Made by a program: the position numbers and the translations under genes. A model generated the notes under the pieces. That model did not search any database, was not told where the DNA came from, and saw only the letters and a program-made list of their open reading frames with translations. From assembly GCA_015523565.1 (NCBI GenBank), contig WAKA01000140.1, positions 1-34,789 of the forward strand: a stretch of 34,789 nucleotides of DNA, in the 5' to 3' direction. Of the stretch, positions 3,373-34,789 are shown piece after piece; within the stretch, counting starts at the first letter, position 1, and each line of letters starts with the position of its first letter. The stretch is from Candidatus Heimdallarchaeota archaeon. Lineage in GTDB: Archaea > Asgardarchaeota > Heimdallarchaeia > Heimdallarchaeales > Kariarchaeaceae.

Positions 3373-5502
3373 ATGGAAGATTATGACGAGTCAGACATTC
3401 AAGTGTTGGAAGGCACTGAAGGTGTTAGACACAGGCCCTCTATGTATATTGGTGATGTAGGCTCTAGAGGTCTTCACCATCTTGTCTATGAGGTAATAGA
3501 CAACAGTGTTGACGAGGCTATGGCGGGAAGGTGCTCAAAAGCAATTGTTACCATTCACAAGGATGGTTCTGTTTCAATTAGGGATGATGGTGCAGGGATT
3601 CCGTCGGATATTCATCCACAGTATGGCGTATCAACCTTGGAGGTTATCTTGACAAAATTGCATTCTGGCGGAAAATTTGGGAAGAAAGCATATTCCGTTT
3701 CTGGTGGTCTCCATGGGGTTGGGCTGTCTGTAGTATGTGCCTTAAGCATTGAATTCTATGTTGAGGTTGTTCGTGAAAAGAAAGTTTTTTGGCAGGAATA
3801 CTCAAGAGGTAAAAAAAAGTATGATGTTAAATCCAGACCGAGGGGTCCAGAAGATCAGCGTGGTACTTTAATCAAATTCAAGCCTGATCCAGAAATCTTT
3901 AACACCACCGAGTTCAATTTTGACATTTTGGCAGGTCGGTTTAAGGAACTTGCATATCTGACAGAGGGATTCACGATTGAATTCACTGACGAAAGACAAA
4001 TCGAAACAGATGAGGATGGAAATGAAAAACCATTAACGGTTGTATTTCATTATGAAGGAGGAATTGTCCAGTTTGTGGAAGATACGATCAAGAACAGAAG
4101 AATGCTTGATGATGAAGCGCCAATCTTCCGAGCAACTGGTGAAAGCAATGGTGTCAAAGTTGATATTGCCTTGGCCTATACGGATTCCTTCCAAGAATTG
4201 ATTAAGGGATTTGTGAACAATATTGATACTCGTGAGGGAGGAACTCATGTTTCAGGTTTCAAAACTGCATTGACTAGAACACTCAATGACTTTGCAAGAA
4301 CAAATAAGATTTTGAGAGACAAGGATGAGAATTTAAGGGGAGACGATACAAGGGAGGGGCTTGTTGCAATAATTTCTGTCAAGGTTCCTGAACCACAATT
4401 TGAAGGTCAAACCAAGACAAAGCTGGGCAACAGTGAAGTGGACGGAATTGTTCAAGGGATATTCGGCAAGAGATTCAAGGAATTTCTCCAAACCCATCAA
4501 ACTTATGGACGCGCAATTGTCCAAAAAGCAATCCAGTCCAGAAGGGCAAGGCTTGCTGCACAAAAAGCAAGGGAATTGATTCGAAAAACCAGCTCAAGTA
4601 AGGTTTCCCTTCCTGGAAAACTATATGCTTCCAGAGAAAAAGACCCGATGAAACGTGAATTGTTCCTCGTTGAAGGACAATCTGCCGGTGGTACTGCCGT
4701 CAAGGCAAGAGATGCCCAGAACCAGGAAATTCTGTTCTTGCGGGGGAAAGTCCTGAATGTTGAGAAGGCACGTCTAAGTCGTATCTTGGATAATGCAGAA
4801 ATTAGAAACATCATAACTGCTGTTGGAACTGGAATTGATGACGACTTTGACATTTCAAAGCTCAGATACGGAAAAATAGTTATTCTTACTGACGCAGATG
4901 TTGACGGGCTCCATATAGCCACTCTGCTTCTGACGCTTTTCTACAGGCATATGCGACCACTGCTTGAAGAAGGACATATTTATATGGCAAGACCCCCGCT
5001 TTTCAAGGTCTCGTTCAATACAAAATCAATAAAGTTGACTGGAAAGCCTTATGTTTATTTGACATCTGACAGGGATCTTGAGGCCTTGAAAATTGCCCTT
5101 GAAGACATGGGACTTTCTACCAACGACATTGTTGTCAACAGGTTCAAGGGTCTTGGTGAAATGAATGCAGACCAGCTTGAAGAAACAGTCATGAATCCAT
5201 TGACCCGGCGCATCGAAAGAATTATAATTGCAGACAGCGCAGAAACGGAAACATGGATTACAAAACTCATGGGTGACGATATCCAAGGAAGAAAGAAGTT
5301 CATCAATGAAGAGGTCTTTTCAGAGGAAAGCCATCATCATTTTGGTGAATTCTATTCTTTGGCTTTTGATGAGGAAAATGAAGAAGATGAGGAAATCGAA
5401 ATTTACGAAGGTGACTTTGAAAATGAGATGCAGGATGAAAGCATCTTAGCCGCCGATCTCTTGTCACAACTAGAGGACTGGACCCATGAACCACAATTTT
5501 AG
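3373..5502 (+). CDS. gyrB: DNA gyrase subunit B (type IIA topoisomerase) with acidic C-terminal extension
   Basis: VRHRPSMYIG, EVIDNSVDE, DDGAGIP, LHSGGKF, GGLHGVG, PQFEGQTK, TOPRIM EGQSAGG and TDADVDG, RFKGLGEMN; directly upstream of gyrA. Confidence 0.95.
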   Translation: MEDYDESDIQVLEGTEGVRHRPSMYIGDVGSRGLHHLVYEVIDNSVDEAMAGRCSKAIVTIHKDGSVSIRDDGAGIPSDIHPQYGVSTLEVILTKLHSGGKFGKKAYSVSGGLHGVGLSVVCALSIEFYVEVVREKKVFWQEYSRGKKKYDVKSRPRGPEDQRGTLIKFKPDPEIFNTTEFNFDILAGRFKELAYLTEGFTIEFTDERQIETDEDGNEKPLTVVFHYEGGIVQFVEDTIKNRRMLDDEAPIFRATGESNGVKVDIALAYTDSFQELIKGFVNNIDTREGGTHVSGFKTALTRTLNDFARTNKILRDKDENLRGDDTREGLVAIISVKVPEPQFEGQTKTKLGNSEVDGIVQGIFGKRFKEFLQTHQTYGRAIVQKAIQSRRARLAAQKARELIRKTSSSKVSLPGKLYASREKDPMKRELFLVEGQSAGGTAVKARDAQNQEILFLRGKVLNVEKARLSRILDNAEIRNIITAVGTGIDDDFDISKLRYGKIVILTDADVDGLHIATLLLTLFYRHMRPLLEEGHIYMARPPLFKVSFNTKSIKLTGKPYVYLTSDRDLEALKIALEDMGLSTNDIVVNRFKGLGEMNADQLEETVMNPLTRRIERIIIADSAETETWITKLMGDDIQGRKKFINEEVFSEESHHHFGEFYSLAFDEENEEDEEIEIYEGDFENEMQDESILAADLLSQLEDWTHEPQF

Positions 5503-5506
5503 GTGA
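5501..5506 (+). promoter_or_regulatory. Shine-Dalgarno AGGTGA upstream of gyrA
   Basis: AGGTGA overlaps the gyrB stop and ends 6 nt before the ATG at 5513. Confidence 0.7.
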
Positions 5507-5512
5507 AACGTT

Positions 5513-8182
5513 ATGTCAACAACTGAAGATTTTATCAGAGAAAGCACACTTACAACAGAACTGAAATATGGTTTTGGAGAGTATTCCCGCTATGTCATTT
5601 CAGATCGAGCCCTCCCTGATGCCAGAGACGGACTTAAACCTGTCCACCGAAGAATAATATATGCAATGCATGGTCTTGGTCTTACACATAGGTCCAACTT
5701 CAAGAAATGTGCAAGAATTGTTGGTGAAGTCACTGGAAAGTACCATCCACATGCAGGAGGGACATATGAAAGCCTTGTCCGATTGGCACAGGACTGGTCA
5801 CTTCGATATCCACTTGTTGAAGGACAGGGAAACTTTGGAAGCATTGATGGTTTTCCCCCTGCAGCCATGCGTTATACTGAGGCAAGGCTTGCCAAGATCT
5901 CCCAGGAATTGTTGGCTGACCTTTCCCCAAAGGTGGTTCAATTTGTCGAAAACTTTGATGGAGAGGAAATGGAACCAACAGTCTTACCTGTCCGAGTCCC
6001 CCATCTGTTGTTGAACGGTGCCAAGGGAATCGCTGTGGGAATGTCCTCCAATATTCCTCCCCATCAACTGGGTGAACTTATAGATGGTGCCATTGCAATA
6101 ATTGACAATCCAAGAATCACAATAGAAGAACTGATGGAGCATGTAAAAGGTCCTGATTTTCCAACAGGTGGATTGATTGTTGGTACTAAAGGAATAGAGG
6201 CACTTTACCGAACTGGAAAGGGAAGCCTAAGAGTAAGATCACGCATTCATGTTGAACGCCCTGATACCCATAAGGTAAAGGAGCCCATGCTTGTTGTTGA
6301 TGAAATCCCCTATTTCGTGAATAAAACCTCCCTGATTGAAGAAATTGCTGAATTGATCAATGAAAACAAGATAAGGGGCGTAACTAATATCCGTGACCTT
6401 TCAAAAGACAAGATAAGAATTGAAATTGTTGTTGAAGAAGGATATTCAGACGATGAATCACTGAGAACTGTCCAAGCCCAGCTTTTCAACAGGACATCAC
6501 TTGAAAATTATTTCCATGCCCGTATCTTGGCTTTTGTCTATGGAAAACCAAGAACCCTCAACCTAAAACAGGCTCTCTCAATTTTCCTCGACTTCAGAGA
6601 GGATGTCATCCTGAAACGCTCTGAGGAAGAACTTGAAAAAGTCATGGCACGTTTGCATATCCTTGAAGGATTAATCAAGGCATCACAACATATTGATGCA
6701 ATCATTGCATTGATTCGCGCGTCGGAAACAAGAGCCGAAGCCCAAAAGAACTTGATGGAAACATATCAACTCTCCGATAAGCAAGCCAAAGCTGTTCTTG
6801 ACATGACTCTGGCAAGATTGGCAAGAGTTGAACAGAATGATCTTGTACAAGAAGCAGAAAAAAGAAGAGAAAGGGCTTCTTTCTTGCTGGAAATCATCAA
6901 CAACAGGTCAAGAAGATTGGAAGTCATTAAAGAGGAACTCTTGGACATCAAAAACAAGTACAATGACAAAAGAAGAACGACAATCCTTGAATATGATGAA
7001 ATTGGCATGAAAGGGGATCGCGCACTCCTGCATGAAAGAAAACTTCTCATTACCTCGACAAGCGAAGGATATGTCAGGTCAATTGATTTTGAAAAATTCA
7101 AGATTCAAGGAAGGGCAGGAGTTGGTGTGATTGGTCTTCCCCTGAACCCTGATGAAAGATTGCTTGACTTTACCATTGCAAGCAACAAGGATGACCTCCT
7201 TCTAATCACTGAGGAAGGGATCATCCATAAGATCCCCGCATTTGAAGTCATAGAGGTAAATAAAAGAACCCACAAGGGAAGAAAATTGAACACATACCTC
7301 CCTGTCAACTCACTCGTCAAAAAAATCGTTCCAGTCCCTGAAAATGAATTTACCAAAGATAAAATCCTTGTGACAGTGACCAAAAATGGCATAGTCAAAA
7401 GAACTACCCTTGACAAATTCAAAAATATCAGAAAAACAGGAATCAAATGCCTCTTGTTTAAGGATGAAAATGATGCTGTTGTTGATGCATTCATTACAGA
7501 TGGTGATTCCTTAATTTTCATGGCTTCAAAGTTTGGAAGTGCATCCATCTTCGAAGAAAAGAAAGCAAGGTTGACTGGTCGGGTGGCACAAGGTGTTATC
7601 GGTATGAAATTCAGGTCCCCTGACGATGAAATAATATCATCATTTGCGGTGCCAAAAGAAAAGTATGAGACAGATGCTGTACTAACATTGACTGAAAAGG
7701 GATATGGAAAACGGACATTGCTGTCGAAATATAGAATAACAAACAGGGCCGCTAAAGGTGTGAAGAATATCAAAATAACAGACAAAAACGGGTATGTAAC
7801 CAGTTCCATTTTCGTTCCTGCTGATGATCGGCAAATCCCACTATCCTTGATCAGTAATTCTGGAAAAATAATCAAGGTTCTATTGAACACAATCCGACTG
7901 ATGGGAAGAAGTACACAAGGCGTAAGGGTCATGAGACTTTCTAAAAATGAAAAATTGGTCTTTGCATCCCTCATTGTTGACGATTCCCAAATTGAGGAAA
8001 TTGAAATTCCCCAAGAAAATGAGGATTATGATGATCTTGATGAAATGGAAGATAATGATGAAATCACCACTGAAATAATCCCTGACGAAAACAATGGAAA
8101 TGAAACTTATGAAGACGAAAACAGTGAAGACGCTACAGCAGACGCCCTAAGTGAATTGGATCAATTGGATTTTGATACATGA
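5513..8182 (+). CDS. gyrA: DNA gyrase subunit A
   Basis: [23 protein letters not shown], catalytic AAMRYTE, beta-pinwheel CTD repeats, GyrA-box-like QGRAGVG (7106-7126) and an acidic tail. Confidence 0.95.
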
Positions 8183-13104: not shown

Positions 13105-15339
13105 GTGACTTCCATATTCCAAGTTTTGAAAGACTATTCCCAATATTTTGAAACAGACTACATCCCAGATTATGACTTTCTTAAATTATCAAACACCCAT
13201 AGAAAGTTTGATGCATTGATGCGGAGATTCTGGGATTCTTTCCATCCATTGACAAGGGACATTTTTCTCAGTTTCATCTACGAGGTATCCAGACTATTGA
13301 ATACTGTTGAAGAACTGAATAAGGAAGTCTCAATCAAAGAAAGGGAAGTCCAGAAAATCAGTAAAGAACTAAACGAAAGAAGGGAATATATTGCCAGTTT
13401 GCTTGAAAAACTTGAACAAGAAGTTACAACCCAATTGTCATTGACGGAAGAAGAAATTAGAGCATTGGAAGAGGAATCAAAAGCAAAGTCCGAATTGGTT
13501 GAGAAGTTGCAACAGGAAATAATGACATTGAAAAGTGAACTTAATTCACAATCCACCCTTTCTTCAGATGCCGTAACTGAAGCTGTCCTGATGGATCAAA
13601 AAATCAACAAAATGGAAGCGGAAATAAAAGAACAACAGGAAGTAATTGAAAAACTGACTTTCGATAATCTTCAACTTATGGAACAAAACCTTTCGCTTCA
13701 AAAAGACAATGAAGCCTTGGTTAAACAAGTTAATGAACTTGAAAATAAACTTACCCAATTGACTACTGCAAATGAAATGCTGCAAAAAGAATTATCCCAG
13801 AAAGAACAGGCGATAAATTCCCTCAACAAGAAAGTCATCGAGATGAAAGCTGGTGAATTTTCTGGAACTTCTGAAGAAGAAACCTCTGACAGTTTTGATT
13901 CCTTTATTGGAAGCGATGTAAAGGAATTAAAGAAAGATATGATGGCATTGACAAAAATAATTTCTGAAGAATTCTCTCAACCCATGGAGCACCCTGTTGA
14001 CGCATCTAAAATGGACGAACTCAGTAAAATCATGAACTTCAAATCTAAATTGATTGACTTTTATGAGAACATTAAATCAAAAGACCCTACCCTTGATTTA
14101 TTCCTTTTGAATGAAGAAATTGAAGAAATGGCAAAAGAAGACCCTTATGGTGTCTTAAATGTAATCGAAAAAATCATTTCCGTATTCCTTACACTCATGA
14201 TGGATACAAAATTGGAAGAGATCAAAAGAGAATTCCTGATTGAAAAAATACAACTGCAATCCGAAATTGTACAATTGAGAAATAAAATAATCGAATTGAC
14301 CGATTCCTTGGAAGAACCTCTGAAAATAAAGAAAGAAGTAGATGAAATGTTTGAAACATCCCGTGGGTCTCTAAAGGAAAAAGAAATGGGAAAAGTACAG
14401 GTGGATGAGGAATCCAAAGATCATTTGGGCAATAAAATCCAAGAGGATGATAAAGACAAGTTGGACACCATAACAGATAAATTGGACGCCATAACACAAG
14501 ATGATGAAATTATTGTTGCCAAAACTAATGAAAACGATTTCAGAAGACAACCCATGTCTCAACCCCTTGATGAAGAACAAAATGACTTCATGATACATCA
14601 TGAATATGCTGAGAATAAAGAAGAGGTTGAAAATGATGGATTGCAACCAGAGGAACGTAAAACTGAAAATAAACAGCACTTCTCATCTAATTTTCTCTTA
14701 TCGAAACTGAAAAAACATTTAGAGGAGGAAACTCATTCTACAATAGCTTCGTCAGAGCATGAAATAAATGATCTGGATTCAAAAACATTACCTCAAGAGC
14801 CAATTGACGAAATGCCGATCAATAATGATGCAAACTTTGATGCTGTTGCTATGGACAAAGAACTTGGGATGGACGACAATGAAATTGACGATATAACTTT
14901 TGATGGAATGCTTGTTGATGAAGAACCGATTGATGAACCAAATAATCTTAGTTCTCAAGTGAATATTGAAGAAAGTGAATCCAGTCAATTTGATACCAAT
15001 GACCAAAAAGAGTTATCAATCAATGAAACAGTTGTGGCTGATGAAACAGGTTCCGAAAAAAAAGACCACCAAGACGCATTTTTACCAGTGCCACCTTTGA
15101 AGGACAGTCTTTTGGAATTTGTCTCAAAAGTAAAAACAGAAAAGACATCAAACAAACCAACACTGGATCACTCAGATCATGACTTGGAAACATCATTTCC
15201 AGAAAAAAAAGAAGAATTAAATACGGACTCTTTTCTCCAAAATGAAGAGACACAAAATGACAAGGTCAATTCATTGCTAAACAAATTCCAGAAAAAACTC
15301 ACTTCTTCAAAGAAATCATGGCTTGATGATGATCAATAA
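13105..15339 (+). CDS. Large hypothetical protein: N-terminal helical/coiled-coil region plus long acidic disordered C-terminal region
   Basis: 744-aa ORF; heptad-rich at about aa 60-250 and 370-410; D/E/N/S-rich low-complexity C-terminal third. Confidence 0.8.
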   Translation: MTSIFQVLKDYSQYFETDYIPDYDFLKLSNTHRKFDALMRRFWDSFHPLTRDIFLSFIYEVSRLLNTVEELNKEVSIKEREVQKISKELNERREYIASLLEKLEQEVTTQLSLTEEEIRALEEESKAKSELVEKLQQEIMTLKSELNSQSTLSSDAVTEAVLMDQKINKMEAEIKEQQEVIEKLTFDNLQLMEQNLSLQKDNEALVKQVNELENKLTQLTTANEMLQKELSQKEQAINSLNKKVIEMKAGEFSGTSEEETSDSFDSFIGSDVKELKKDMMALTKIISEEFSQPMEHPVDASKMDELSKIMNFKSKLIDFYENIKSKDPTLDLFLLNEEIEEMAKEDPYGVLNVIEKIISVFLTLMMDTKLEEIKREFLIEKIQLQSEIVQLRNKIIELTDSLEEPLKIKKEVDEMFETSRGSLKEKEMGKVQVDEESKDHLGNKIQEDDKDKLDTITDKLDAITQDDEIIVAKTNENDFRRQPMSQPLDEEQNDFMIHHEYAENKEEVENDGLQPEERKTENKQHFSSNFLLSKLKKHLEEETHSTIASSEHEINDLDSKTLPQEPIDEMPINNDANFDAVAMDKELGMDDNEIDDITFDGMLVDEEPIDEPNNLSSQVNIEESESSQFDTNDQKELSINETVVADETGSEKKDHQDAFLPVPPLKDSLLEFVSKVKTEKTSNKPTLDHSDHDLETSFPEKKEELNTDSFLQNEETQNDKVNSLLNKFQKKLTSSKKSWLDDDQ
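14455..14496 (+). repeat. 21-bp in-frame tandem duplication (DKLDTIT / DKLDAIT)
   Basis: gacaagttggacaccataaca is followed directly by gataaattggacgccataaca (3 mismatches). Confidence 0.8.
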
Positions 15340-18890: not shown

Positions 18891-18941
18891 ACCTTGTTAT
18901 TCATCATTAAATTGGAACAGGCATTCCCACAATGTAAATTT

Positions 18942-19058
18942 GACCCGATGGTGTAATGGTAACATTGGGGATTGTGGCAGTTCGCTGCAAATCTCCCTAG
19001 CTGTGGGTTCGATAATCACATAGTTGTGTGCTTGTGGTCGAAAGTCCCACTCGGGTCA
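18942..19058 (+). tRNA. tRNA-His(GUG) with two introns (18978-18992 at 37/38; 19014-19044 at 59/60); CCA not encoded
   Basis: Acceptor GACCCGA/TCGGGTC, D arm GTGT-AATGGTA-ACAT, anticodon stem GGGGA/TCCCT with spliced loop TTGTGGC (anticodon 18974-18976), T stem GTGGG/CCCAC with spliced loop TTCGATT, discriminator A19058. Both introns fold into hBHBh' motifs. Confidence 0.92.
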
Positions 19059-31115: not shown

Positions 31116-32441
31116 ATGGAAGAACATACTGACGGAAAAGCGAAGGTGCACTATACCTCTGAAGATGTTTTGGAATATCACACCAGCAATTTTCCCGGAA
31201 ATGGAAAGGTTGAAATTATTTCAAAAACATCTGTCAAAACAATTAGGGACTTGACTCTTGCTTATTCTCCTGGAGTTGCAGTGGCATGCAGGGAAATAGA
31301 AAAAGACCCTTATAACAATCTCCCAAAATACACAAACGTGGCCAATCAAGTTGCAGTCATCTCAAATGGAACTAGGATTTTGGGTCTTGGTGACATTGGT
31401 GTTGCAGGGATACCGGTCATGGAAGGTAAGGCCATTTTGTTCAAAGTTTTGGGTGCTGTTGATGCTTTTCCTTTTGTCTTGAATGAAAAAGACCCAGACA
31501 GGTTCATTGAACATGTGAAAGCAATGGCCCAAAATTTTGGTGGCATTAATCTTGAAGACATAAGAAAACCAGATTGCTTCTATATCGAAAGAACTTTGGA
31601 TAAGGAATTGGATATCCCCGTTTTTCATGATGACCAATGGGGAACTGCAATAGTGACAATGGCTGGACTTTTTAATTCATTGAAAATAGTTGATAAGGAT
31701 ATTAGGGAGATTAAAGTTGTTGTAAATGGTGCTGGTGCCGCAGGACTTGCCATTGCAAGAATGTTGCTTGATGCAGGCGTCAAGGGTGAAAACCTGATGG
31801 TGTTTGACCGCCATGGTCCAATCTATTCCGGAAGAATTGAGGGAATGGATCCATATAAAGAGGAAATTGCCCAACAAATAAATCCAAAGAAACTTGACAT
31901 CTCCTTGGACGAGGCAACAAATGGGATCGATGTTTTAATTGGTGTTTCCAATAAAAATGCTTTTACAAAAGCACATGTCTCATCAATGAATGACAACCCT
32001 ATTGTTTTTGGATTGGCCAACCCTGATCCAGAGATTAGCCCCAAGGACGCAATCGATGCAGGAGCTGTCATTGTCGCCACTGGAAGAAGTGACTACGCGA
32101 ATCAAATCAACAATGTCTTGGGATTCCCTGCCATTTTTAGAGGGGCTCTGGATATCCGTGCCAAAAGAATCACTGAGAATATGAGAGTAGCCGCGGCAAA
32201 AGCCATTGCAAGTGCAATTCCTGAGGAGAATCTAGACGTAAACCACATCATCGTCAAACCGACAGACCCCGAAGTCATGCCTAGAGAGGCTATGGCAGTT
32301 GCAAAAGCTGGAATTGAAGACGGCGTCAATCAGAATGACATGACACCTGAAGAAGTCTATGAATTAACCAAGAAAAGAATCGCGTTCTATAATAAACACT
32401 TTGCTACAGTTGTCTCTCTACGTAAAAACCCTGATGTCTAA
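31116..32441 (+). CDS. NAD(P)-dependent malic enzyme (short form, no PTA domain)
   Basis: AYSPGVA, ILGLGDIG, PVMEGK, NLEDI, HDDQWGT, GAGAAG, ANPDPEI and ATGRSD..NQINN. Start is at 31116 or 31095. Confidence 0.93.
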   Translation: MEEHTDGKAKVHYTSEDVLEYHTSNFPGNGKVEIISKTSVKTIRDLTLAYSPGVAVACREIEKDPYNNLPKYTNVANQVAVISNGTRILGLGDIGVAGIPVMEGKAILFKVLGAVDAFPFVLNEKDPDRFIEHVKAMAQNFGGINLEDIRKPDCFYIERTLDKELDIPVFHDDQWGTAIVTMAGLFNSLKIVDKDIREIKVVVNGAGAAGLAIARMLLDAGVKGENLMVFDRHGPIYSGRIEGMDPYKEEIAQQINPKKLDISLDEATNGIDVLIGVSNKNAFTKAHVSSMNDNPIVFGLANPDPEISPKDAIDAGAVIVATGRSDYANQINNVLGFPAIFRGALDIRAKRITENMRVAAAKAIASAIPEENLDVNHIIVKPTDPEVMPREAMAVAKAGIEDGVNQNDMTPEEVYELTKKRIAFYNKHFATVVSLRKNPDV

Positions 32442-33061
32442 TTTGTCTTGATCTCGGATATGATTTCCTTGAATTGTTTCAAGGTAATCTCTTGTGAGTG
32501 AAATGGCCATCTTTTATCCTCTGTGTTTATGACATAGTCTGCCAATGCTATCAAGTTTCCCAATCCATAACTGAGCTCTTTCCTGTCCCTAAGGTCAAAT
32601 CTTGAGATATCATTTGCCATTGCCATATCCTCTGTAAACTTTCCTTCTCCCTGTTGTTTTGAAGCCTCTTGCCTGTCTTGATTTGTCAACCTTCCATGAC
32701 GGGTTGGTCTTGAGGCATGGAAGGAAACAATGAATACGTTGTTCTCTCCAAGTTTTTTCCTCAACAGGTCTACTTCGCTTTGAGCCTTTACACCTGAAAG
32801 AAATACTACTGGTTTGTCATTATAATTTTCCTCAATAAATTCCAATGCCCTTTCCGTGAAATATGAATCAGATTGGGATTTGCATTCGCCTGCAACTTTC
32901 ACAATATTTTCTGGAGTTGCTTCCAATCCTCTTTCCTCTACGGCCTTATACACGAAGGTGCCAGTTTCCACCAAGGGAATGTCTTCCTCTTGCTCCAAAA
33001 TTCTTGCATGACTGGATTTGCCAGATAACGGTAGTCCAACTAAAATTATGACCTTCAACAT
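32438..33061 (-). CDS. P-loop NMP-kinase-fold protein (archaeal UPF0200 / dephospho-CoA-kinase-like)
   Basis: IILVGLPLSGKS Walker A, R..RL, RD.KEL.YGLG..IA.ADY.I; start TTG. Confidence 0.78.
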   Translation of the reverse strand: MLKVIILVGLPLSGKSSHARILEQEEDIPLVETGTFVYKAVEERGLEATPENIVKVAGECKSQSDSYFTERALEFIEENYNDKPVVFLSGVKAQSEVDLLRKKLGENNVFIVSFHASRPTRHGRLTNQDRQEASKQQGEGKFTEDMAMANDISRFDLRDRKELSYGLGNLIALADYVINTEDKRWPFHSQEITLKQFKEIISEIKTN

Positions 33062-33223: not shown

Positions 33224-34789
33224 ATGGCATTACTATTAATTCGTTCAATTGACATTGCTTTAGTGAAAATTTCCATTCCTGAAATTGCAAAAAGAGCTTT
33301 GCTATTGATTGAAAAAAATGGATTTATTGCTTACCTCGTGGGAGGGACAGTTCGTGACCTCTTGCTGACCCAAATAACCAATGTTCCCCTAAAGCAAAAG
33401 GATTTGGATATTGATATTGCCACAAATGCAAGACCTGAGGAAATAAAAAAAATATTCAAAAAATTCAAGCAGTTCTATTCAGGCATTAGACATGGAACTG
33501 TAGGAATCAATTTCTATGGCACAAAAATAGATGTGACCACCTTTCGAATTGAAGAAAAATATTCTGATGGACGGAGACCTGACAAGGTTGTTTTTGTTAA
33601 TGAACTTATTCAAGACCTATCAAGACGTGATTTTACAATCAATGCAATGGCAACGGACCACGAGGGAAATGTCATTGACCCTTTCAATGGCATTGAAGAC
33701 ATGAAAAAAAGAATAATCAGAGCGGTCAATGATCCAAAAGAACGATTTTCTGAAGATTCCTTGAGAATGCTTCGTGCCGTAAGATTTGCCGCCAAACTTG
33801 ATTTTACCATAGAGGAAACAACACTTCAAGCAATAATGCTGCTCAATGGTCTGATTCAGATTCATAAAATATCGCGAGAACGAATTTTTATGGAATTGGA
33901 AAAAACGTTTTCTTACTCCCCCTCTAAAGGCATCAAATTACTTTTTGAAACACAACTGCATATTGTATTGTTTCCAGAAATTAGGGATCCAGATTCAAAA
34001 TTGCTTCGTTTTTCAAAAATTTTGGAAAAAGCTTCCTCCCCCACAGAAATTGTATGGGCTTTGATTTATCATGAGGATGTCTGGATTGCCCAATCTGTAC
34101 CGTTTAAATTTTCCAATCTCAGCATTGAGAAAATCTCTAAATTTTATCTCAATAAATACCCTGGAATGGGAAAGTGGAAGGCAATAAAAGTCTCAGTTCT
34201 CCTTATCCTTATCTCATCAGTCTTCCATATTACTGACGAGAAATTCAGTGAGGGAGAACTTTGGAGATGGTATTTCAAAACATGGCATTTTTTCCATAAA
34301 AAACAGAAGGATTACACGCGAGATGTTGTTAATATGGCTCAAAAAATTTTTTTGGCTCAAATGGAACTTAAATTGTCAAACTATTACCAAGCAATGAAGT
34401 ATCTTCCAATCATCGAAAATGCTTTTGAGAACTTCAAATTAAAAATTGACGGTGAAATGCTCAAAGCCATTGGACTTAAGGGAAAAACTATTTCCCATGC
34501 TCAATACCTTATTTTGTTCAGTTTTATTCTTAAAAAAGGCAGTGTATCTATAGACGATATTGTAGATGATTTGCGTCAAGACAAGGAAATCAGTTATACT
34601 GAACTTATTGATTTTATTTCCATGAACTATCCCACTGGCTCTCCAGATGAAATTGACACTTTCGTTCAATTTGTTTCATACAATGATAAGATCCGCCAGA
34701 AACTCAAAAATCAACTTATTATTTACACCTATTCAAAAAATGAATTTGAAAAGCTCAAAGATACTTGTTCTTTCATTGTTAAGGAAAAC
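33224..34789 (+). CDS. cca: Class II tRNA nucleotidyltransferase (CCA-adding enzyme), 3' end lies outside the window
   Basis: My own translation from ATG 33224 is open to the window end: YLVGGTVRDLLL, DIDIAT, GIRHGTV, DVTTFR.E.KYSDGRRP, DLSRRDFTINAMA, DPFNG..D, RFSEDSLRMLRAVRFAA, ISRERI..E and tail motif LKIDGE.L...GL.G. Confidence 0.9.
   Translation, partial: MALLLIRSIDIALVKISIPEIAKRALLLIEKNGFIAYLVGGTVRDLLLTQITNVPLKQKDLDIDIATNARPEEIKKIFKKFKQFYSGIRHGTVGINFYGTKIDVTTFRIEEKYSDGRRPDKVVFVNELIQDLSRRDFTINAMATDHEGNVIDPFNGIEDMKKRIIRAVNDPKERFSEDSLRMLRAVRFAAKLDFTIEETTLQAIMLLNGLIQIHKISRERIFMELEKTFSYSPSKGIKLLFETQLHIVLFPEIRDPDSKLLRFSKILEKASSPTEIVWALIYHEDVWIAQSVPFKFSNLSIEKISKFYLNKYPGMGKWKAIKVSVLLILISSVFHITDEKFSEGELWRWYFKTWHFFHKKQKDYTRDVVNMAQKIFLAQMELKLSNYYQAMKYLPIIENAFENFKLKIDGEMLKAIGLKGKTISHAQYLILFSFILKKGSVSIDDIVDDLRQDKEISYTELIDFISMNYPTGSPDEIDTFVQFVSYNDKIRQKLKNQLIIYTYSKNEFEKLKDTCSFIVKEN

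Follow-up and report, generated by a model that had tools for sequence, protein, structure and literature searches.

We report that the last gene on a contig of a Candidatus Heimdallarchaeota archaeon very probably codes for a tRNA nucleotidyltransferase of the canonical class II (bacterial) type, Firmicutes-like in origin, which is the sole CCA-adding enzyme found in its genome and has displaced the class I enzyme characteristic of archaea. The stretch of DNA that we analysed (hereafter the window) is 34,789 nucleotides long and is the whole of contig WAKA01000140.1 (C140) of assembly GCA_015523565.1, a genome (G000) of 3.57 Mb in 233 contigs that is ~90% complete. We refer to the gene and its product as CCA2, to three other species of the same genus as the congeners G001, G002 and G003, and to the family of the window's genome as f1. 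That there are Heimdallarchaeia with class II enzymes only, this genome included, is already known from a preprint (bioRxiv 10.64898/2026.05.29.728689, August 2026; Cassidy, Doktor, Betat, Mörl and Prohaska), which describes class II enzymes in several archaeal groups. Our analysis makes small additions to that work, namely the fast evolution of CCA2, a deletion scar at the cca1 locus, and an orphan C-terminal extension.

Sequence and predicted fold of the class II enzyme

CCA2 matches the Pfam families PF01743 (poly A polymerase head domain, E = 2.4e-36) and PF12627 (E = 1e-13), and its best NCBIfam model is that of the CCA tRNA nucleotidyltransferase PRK13299 (274 bits, with a cut-off of 290). 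We placed the class II motifs by regular expression and judged the invariance of their columns over 44 aligned sequences. The gene and its motifs are as follows.

33224..34789, + strand: class II CCA-adding enzyme gene (CCA2), 522 codons, 3' end lost at the contig end
33263..33265, + strand: alternative GTG start at residue 14, at exactly the aligned position of the Met of the G001, G002 and G003 orthologues
33341..33424, + strand: motif A as a whole, with G40, G41, R44, D45, D62 and D64 invariant in the 44 sequences
33341-33358, + strand: motif A, GGTVRD, residues 40-45
33407-33424, + strand: motif A, DIDIAT, residues 62-67, with the two catalytic Asp residues D62 and D64
33482-33502, + strand: GIRHGTV, at the site where poly(A) polymerases have G[RK][RK]F
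33542-33580, + strand: full-length flexible loop FRIEEKYSDGRRP, placed by regular expression and by gap-free alignment to solved CCA-adding enzymes
33623-33646, + strand: motif B, RRDFTINA, residues 134-141, with R134, R135, D136, T138 and N140 invariant
33677-33700, + strand: motif C, DPFNGIED, residues 152-159, with D152 and G156 invariant
33752-33787, + strand: motif D, EDSLRMLRAVRF, residues 177-188, with the amino-acid template E177, D178 and R181
33872-33895, + strand: motif E, SRERIFME, residues 217-224, with E219, R220 and E224 invariant

All of the motifs that had been listed in a preliminary description of the window, made by eye from the letters and their translations, were recovered in this way where it had placed them, including GIRHGTV in the position of the poly(A) polymerase signature. 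The invariant columns of motif D are E177, D178, L180, R181, R184, R187 and F188. For the poly(A) polymerase signature we used the classification pattern of the Leipzig group ([LIV][LIV]G[RK][RK]F...), which had no match across the 522 residues of CCA2. The flexible loop between motifs A and B is needed for A addition and is shortened in CC-adding enzymes; that of CCA2, FRIEEKYSDGRRPDKV, aligns without gaps with FRTESSYSDNRRPDSV of the Planococcus structures 6IBP/7OTR. The earlier identification of a CCA-adding enzyme of class II on the chromosome of an archaeon is upheld.

An AlphaFold2 model of CCA2, built with the 44 aligned sequences, has a mean predicted local distance difference test score (pLDDT) of 90.7 and a predicted template modelling (TM) score of 0.88. 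It matches the head-neck-body-tail ('seahorse') architecture of this enzyme class, superposing over all four parts on the solved bacterial (1MIV, 7OTR) and human CCA-adding enzymes, with target-normalised TM scores of 0.74-0.78 over ~450 columns; the comparison with 1MIV_A gave E = 1.3e-17 and a target-normalised TM score of 0.78 over 450 columns. We infer that CCA2 itself is catalytically active.

Translation from the ATG at 33224 to the last base of the window gives 522 amino acids without a stop. There is no stop codon because contig C140 ends at a scaffold gap: on the ENA scaffold (133.8 kb, with the same genes) 10 N stand right after the base that matches window position 34789, and past this gap stops occur in all three frames within 9-20 codons. 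We put the missing 3' portion at about 12-25 codons, since the G001 orthologue, which is complete at 523 amino acids and identical to the database protein P0003, runs 12 residues past the last aligned position; more than 95% of the gene is inside the window. The C-terminus of the congener orthologue reads ...GGIKLFLETNFF. A CCA2 product of 545 amino acids has been called on the ENA scaffold, and because it crosses the N gap its end cannot be trusted. The next contig of G000 (C198) begins ~123 bases beyond the gap, and exact look-ups of the CCA2 protein, made to recover the missing C-terminus, returned no match. The open-ended frame also explains why, as had been remarked, the gene is missing from the open reading frame track of the window: lists that omit open-ended frames miss such genes, and CCA2 appears only when these are allowed. 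At the other end, the true start may be the GTG at 33263 instead of the ATG at 33224. The orthologues of G001, G002 and G003 begin with MKVHVP, MKISVP and MQITID, respectively, where the window has VKISIP, and residues 1-10 have a pLDDT of 41 in the model.

Absence of class I and the bacterial affinity of CCA2

PF01743 matches just one gene of the genome G000, in which no further class II gene was found. Class I was not found either, with no PF09249 match and no full-length TIGR03671 match in this ~90% complete genome; the best TIGR03671 match, at 23.8 bits, falls on a protein that is by Pfam an OAS/SMODS-type nucleotidyltransferase. Among the Heimdallarchaeia genomes at least 80% complete that we surveyed, class II was present in eight of the nine from f1 and class I in none of the nine, a survey that includes a 10-contig genome (93% complete) and another that is 94% complete. 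Other Heimdallarchaeia families, f3, f4 and f7, do have class I. The preliminary description had proposed a check for class I, and the scenario that it raised against its own reading assumed that class I was retained; none was found in G000 or in any of the f1 genomes searched. Within a family that has two class II copies (f5), only one genome (G045) had a full class I gene (361 bits), and class II was missing from it; this genome, with 7% contamination, may be a genuine exception or else the product of faulty binning.

The site at which a class I gene would be expected has also been assembled. In the sister families cca1 is arranged with a kinase gene that is divergent from a thpR-cca1 pair (kinase <-> thpR-cca1). 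Contig C213 of G000 (locus L021:850-2554) carries the orthologous kinase (52% identity) and thpR (2',5' RNA ligase family) as a divergent pair, but the next gene after thpR is a convergent CDP-archaeol synthase gene, and cca1 is missing. This is the scar of the ancestral class I locus, and it gives positive evidence of cca1 loss. None of the 38 tRNA genes detected by ARAGORN in G000 encodes CCA after the discriminator base; CCA addition is therefore indispensable to this organism and, with no other candidate found, CCA2 must do the job.

The best database matches of CCA2 are three Asgard proteins (45-47% identity), followed by proteins of Heimdallarchaeota and Kariarchaeaceae. The closest matches from outside the Asgard archaea are from Treponema, Parcubacteria, Clostridia/Tissierellia and Bacilli, with ~50% identity over the head and neck only. 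Scores against enzymes of solved structure were as follows.

Bacillales CCA-adding enzymes (solved structures): 165-174 bits
E. coli poly(A) polymerase: 94 bits
Human TRNT1: 87 bits
Thermotoga CCA enzyme: 75 bits

For phylogenetic placement we built maximum likelihood trees of 55 and 62 archaeal and bacterial sequences (IQ-TREE, LG+C20 posterior mean site frequency model, quick search), in which Bacteroidota loci from a scan of genome contigs served as rows. In both trees f1 formed one clade within the half that holds Firmicutes, Spirochaetota and Patescibacteria, and this CCA2 clade contained Heimdallarchaeia sequences only, with 99-100% support in the Shimodaira-Hasegawa-like approximate likelihood ratio test (SH-aLRT). 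In the sister family f2, by contrast, the class II enzyme grouped with Bacteroidota (100%), across a branch with 100% SH-aLRT from the half that contains f1. Forcing the f1 and f2 archaeal sequences into one clade cost 48 log-likelihood units and was rejected by the approximately unbiased test (p-AU 0.014), while a single clade of f1 and both f5 paralogues was not rejected (p-AU 0.55). These results support a bacterial origin of CCA2 distinct from that of the sister family's enzyme, and they favour the alternative that the preliminary description had offered, an independent transfer from bacteria. The congener G002 carries CCA2 twice; its second copy lies on a different contig (L034) and branches off immediately outside the copies that share the conserved gene order.

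The other suggestion made in that description was that of a partly eukaryote-like toolkit for tRNA end maturation in this lineage; in such a reading CCA2 would derive from the lineage that gave the eukaryotic TRNT1/Cca1 enzymes. The suggestion had been prompted by a CCA-less tRNA-His with A73 in the same window, which we could indeed read.

18941-19058, + strand: tRNA-His(GUG), read by eye, with acceptor stem GACCCGA/TCGGGTC, A73 and anticodon loop UUGUGGC

This tRNA has a perfect 7-bp acceptor stem, a T at position -1 (hence no encoded G-1) and no CCA, and its extra sequence is consistent with two introns. Neither ARAGORN (default and relaxed settings) nor Rfam (gathering score, and E <= 1) called a tRNA in the window. 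Intron-rich tRNAs are probably under-called in G000, since ARAGORN reported no His, Phe or Trp tRNA over the whole genome. The A73 and the lack of an encoded G-1 are what speak for a eukaryotic connection; the absence of CCA gives this tRNA-His no special weight, because every tRNA gene detected in G000 lacks it. Set against the connection are the score of human TRNT1, at 87 bits about half that of the Bacillales enzymes, the Firmicutes-like placement of the CCA2 clade across a fully supported branch from the Bacteroidota and f2 enzymes, and the tree of the preprint, which includes eukaryotes (our own trees did not) and leaves the class II-only type outside the eukaryote clade (10.64898/2026.05.29.728689). 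We therefore regard a shared origin with the eukaryotic enzymes as most improbable, and the data lend no support to the proposed toolkit.

A bacterial acquisition followed by loss of class I would account for these data as a case of non-orthologous displacement. An ancestor of f1 would have taken up the class II gene from bacteria of a Firmicutes-like lineage, and deletion of the class I gene of archaea would have followed; the direction and timing of the transfer are inferred. CCA2 would then build the whole 3'-CCA end of tRNAs independently of any nucleic-acid template, by a chemistry that would rely on the metal site at DxD and on the amino acids E, D and R of motif D as template.

Divergence of CCA2 and its genomic setting

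Two regions set CCA2 apart from the solved bacterial enzymes.

33377..33400, + strand: TNVPLKQK, an insert of 8 residues in the loop that precedes the DxD strand; Planococcus 6IBP/7OTR align with a gap of just this length
34535..34789, + strand: residues 438-522, a C-terminal region specific to the lineage; a small alpha/beta unit added past the bacterial tail, incomplete at the contig end

Both had been noticed beforehand, the first as an insertion of about 8 residues and the second as a continuation without a stop past the usual tail. The insert ranges from 0 to ~17 residues within the family and was not seen in the bacterial enzymes of the alignment; it is a variable trait of only part of the family. 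The bacterial enzymes (408-418 amino acids) stop at about residue 455 of the alignment, and the extra C-terminal stretch is common to CCA2 relatives of 523-572 amino acids, with lengths of 0 to ~158 amino acids across the family. A domain model of the extension gave a small alpha/beta unit (pLDDT 79.5). Its best structural match by VIA-align had a Z score of 4.9, with no chain reaching Z 5 and a mixed list of candidates, and a phmmer search against 1.84 billion representatives found no match; the one Pfam match, to DUF7669, was below threshold (E = 0.007-0.009). The extension is net acidic (16 D/E versus 11 K/R), so RNA binding is not suggested, and it is ~22% identical even to that of the G001 orthologue from the same genus. 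It is an orphan domain.

The gene as a whole has changed far faster than its neighbours, as the identities to G001, G002 and G003, in that order, make plain.

CCA2, whole protein: 45 / 52 / 34%
Adjacent kinase: 87 / 92 / 75%
Malic enzyme: 74 / - / 59%
GyrB: 87 / 86 / 69%

CCA2 is thus 34-52% identical between congeners, compared with 59-92% for the flanking genes; its head and neck are ~64% identical to those of G001 and G002.

This rate bears on the possibility that CCA2 is an incomplete CCA adder, for example one that acts as a poly(A) polymerase, adds only CC or only A, or has taken on a new role, and that the real enzyme is encoded in the missing 10% of the genome. The incompleteness of the genome, the fast evolution just described, the two copies carried by G002 and the atypical C-terminal half of CCA2 could all be read in this way. 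They have to be set against core motifs that are invariant, a flexible loop of full length, the lack of a poly(A) polymerase signature, the failure to find a second class II or any class I gene in G000 or class I in the family members searched, and an ancestral cca1 site that is assembled and empty. We consider it very unlikely that CCA2 is not the complete CCA-adding enzyme of this organism.

Several points nevertheless weigh against our interpretation of CCA2 as a canonical class II enzyme of Firmicutes-like origin that has displaced class I. The PRK13299 score of 274 bits is below the cut-off of 290, and the match spans only residues 22-321 of a truncated protein whose C-terminal half is divergent. 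That half is indeed so divergent that its BLAST similarity is confined to the genus, and the final codons are absent from the contig. With G000 ~90% complete, what supports the absence of class I is the pattern across the family and the scar at the cca1 locus, and not a closed genome. The donor is weakly resolved, the grouping of f1 with Alicyclobacillaceae-like Firmicutes having an SH-aLRT of 84. Finally, the class II enzymes that have been assayed in vitro belong to other lineages than that of the window.

The position of CCA2 at the very end of a contig, together with nearest non-Asgard relatives that are bacterial, could suggest an artefact, a bacterial fragment mis-joined or mis-binned onto an archaeal contig; a chimeric join near 33.1 kb had been named in the preliminary description as what would undo its reading. 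The gene next to CCA2 served as a synteny anchor.

32438..33061, - strand: P-loop kinase-like gene, divergent from CCA2 (Pfam AAA_17/AAA_18)

The kinase adjoins CCA2 in all three congeners (kinase identity 75-92%), and the order malic enzyme - kinase - CCA2 is kept in them. The kinase/CCA2 junction itself recurs in three other assemblies (L031, L032 and L033), one with a single nucleotide polymorphism and one from a second sample. Moreover, gyrB lies ~28 kb from CCA2 in both G000 and G001, the guanine-plus-cytosine fraction at 33-34 kb (0.35) is inside the range of the contig, the same contig encodes a Roadblock/LC7 protein and the intron-bearing tRNA-His, and the CCA2 clade is, as noted above, made up of Heimdallarchaeia alone. 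The contig is archaeal, neither chimeric nor a contaminant, and a join artefact, already contradicted by these observations, is hardly conceivable.

We also considered, and rejected, an in-situ replacement of class I by class II, an idea prompted by the kinase homologues beside thpR-cca1 in the sister families. The kinase of the window is a paralogue of these, with its true orthologues elsewhere in the sister-family genomes (47-58% identity), and the cca1-linked kinase has its own orthologue on contig C213 of G000. Genomes of the order each carry two or three paralogues of this AAA_17/AAA_18 kinase-like family. One of them goes with thpR-cca1, and that of the window stands beside the class II gene throughout the genus.

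Some other genes of the region may be recorded here.

3373-8182, + strand: bacterial-type DNA gyrase B and A genes, on the same contig, with GyrB 69-87% identical in the genus
13105-15339, + strand: 744-amino-acid protein with a sub-threshold Mod(r)/Vps37 match (PF07200, E = 6e-4, 20 bits; cut-off 30)
ENA scaffold L031:1-3974, continuing on C198, directly downstream of CCA2: giant gene, called product of 3483 residues, with a Topo-VIb transducer match and weak HATPase_c matches

On the basis of its PF07200 match the 744-amino-acid product may be an ESCRT-I-like Asgard protein.

Relation to other class II and class I enzymes

That archaea use class I enzymes, and bacteria and eukaryotes class II, was long treated as a strict rule. 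That it is broken among the archaea nearest to eukaryotes matters for how bacterial parts came into the eukaryotic translation apparatus. The window is an added example and not a discovery in this respect, since the preprint makes the point already, with enzyme assays (10.64898/2026.05.29.728689). The enzyme of the window is of the type without a link to eukaryotes. In practical terms, estimates of genome completeness are affected as well: at least one scheme (PMC9258230) counts the class I enzyme (COG1746) among its 38 archaeal single-copy markers, and lineages without class I (f1 and f5) would then be scored slightly too incomplete.

The preprint divides Heimdallarchaeia into a class I-only group, a group with both classes in which class I is inactive, and a class II-only group, whose enzyme resembles those of later-diverging bacteria and adds CCA in vitro; activity was demonstrated for class II enzymes from two organisms, a Hodarchaeum sp. 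and Heimdallarchaeum aukensis (10.64898/2026.05.29.728689). In its tree the eukaryotes join the Bacteroidota-like enzyme of Heimdallarchaeaceae, with the class II-only type outside that clade, and its table scores Ca. Heimdallarchaeota archaeon S012_26_esom (3,571,168 bases) as lacking CCA1 and having CCA2. Our family-level counts of class I and class II agree with it, including the sub-threshold class I scores of f2.

Taking our results together, we offer with some hesitation a combined reading that we think possible, though doubtful as a whole. Within one order of Heimdallarchaeia, two unrelated bacterial class II enzymes, of a Firmicutes-like (f1) and a Bacteroidota-like (f2) type, would have displaced class I independently; the type found in the window may occur in another order too, in the two-copy, Hodarchaeales-like family, and the gene would then have passed from one Heimdall lineage to another; and the fast change of CCA2 in this genus after the displacement, its variable insert and its orphan C-terminal domain could reflect adaptation to archaeal tRNAs or partners and not mere drift.

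The closest known counterparts of CCA2 are the class II-only enzymes that the preprint calls 'Heim02' (Hodarchaeales). In both, class II is the sole CCA enzyme, class I has been lost and the most similar enzymes are those of later-diverging bacteria (Patescibacteria, Bacillus, Clostridium). The two differ in taxonomic setting: GTDB 232 puts f1 in the same order as the both-class family f2, and the two-paralogue, class II-only family f5 (genomes of 4-6 Mb) in another order than f1; G000 has one class II copy where f5 has two. The label 'Hodarchaeales' may not fit the lineage of the window in the strict sense, because of this order placement and because a protein labelled Kariarchaeaceae by NCBI nests in the CCA2 clade.

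The class II enzymes of f2 (the Heimdallarchaeaceae 'Heim12' of the preprint) likewise occur in Heimdallarchaeia genomes and are 460-495 amino acids long, but they are only ~28-35% identical to CCA2, group with Bacteroidota and are accompanied by a class I gene that is degenerate, its scores of 180-243 bits falling short of the cut-off (281 bits). They are of the type that the preprint links to eukaryotes (10.64898/2026.05.29.728689). Among solved structures, the Bacillales enzymes of Geobacillus stearothermophilus (1MIV) and Planococcus halocryophilus (6IBP/7OTR) share motifs A-E and the flexible loop with CCA2, score 165-174 bits over the head and neck, and resemble its predicted fold (TM 0.74-0.78); they lack the 8-residue insert before the DxD and the ~85-100 extra C-terminal residues, and in body and tail they are only ~26-29% identical to CCA2 overall. 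Human mitochondrial/cytosolic TRNT1 (1OU5, 4X4W) has the class II fold and motifs as well, but half the Bacillales score (87 bits) and no specific affinity to CCA2. The archaeal class I enzymes (TIGR03671 / PF09249, for example that of Archaeoglobus fulgidus) carry out the same reaction in the same cellular role, with an architecture that is unrelated to that of class II outside the Pol-beta core.

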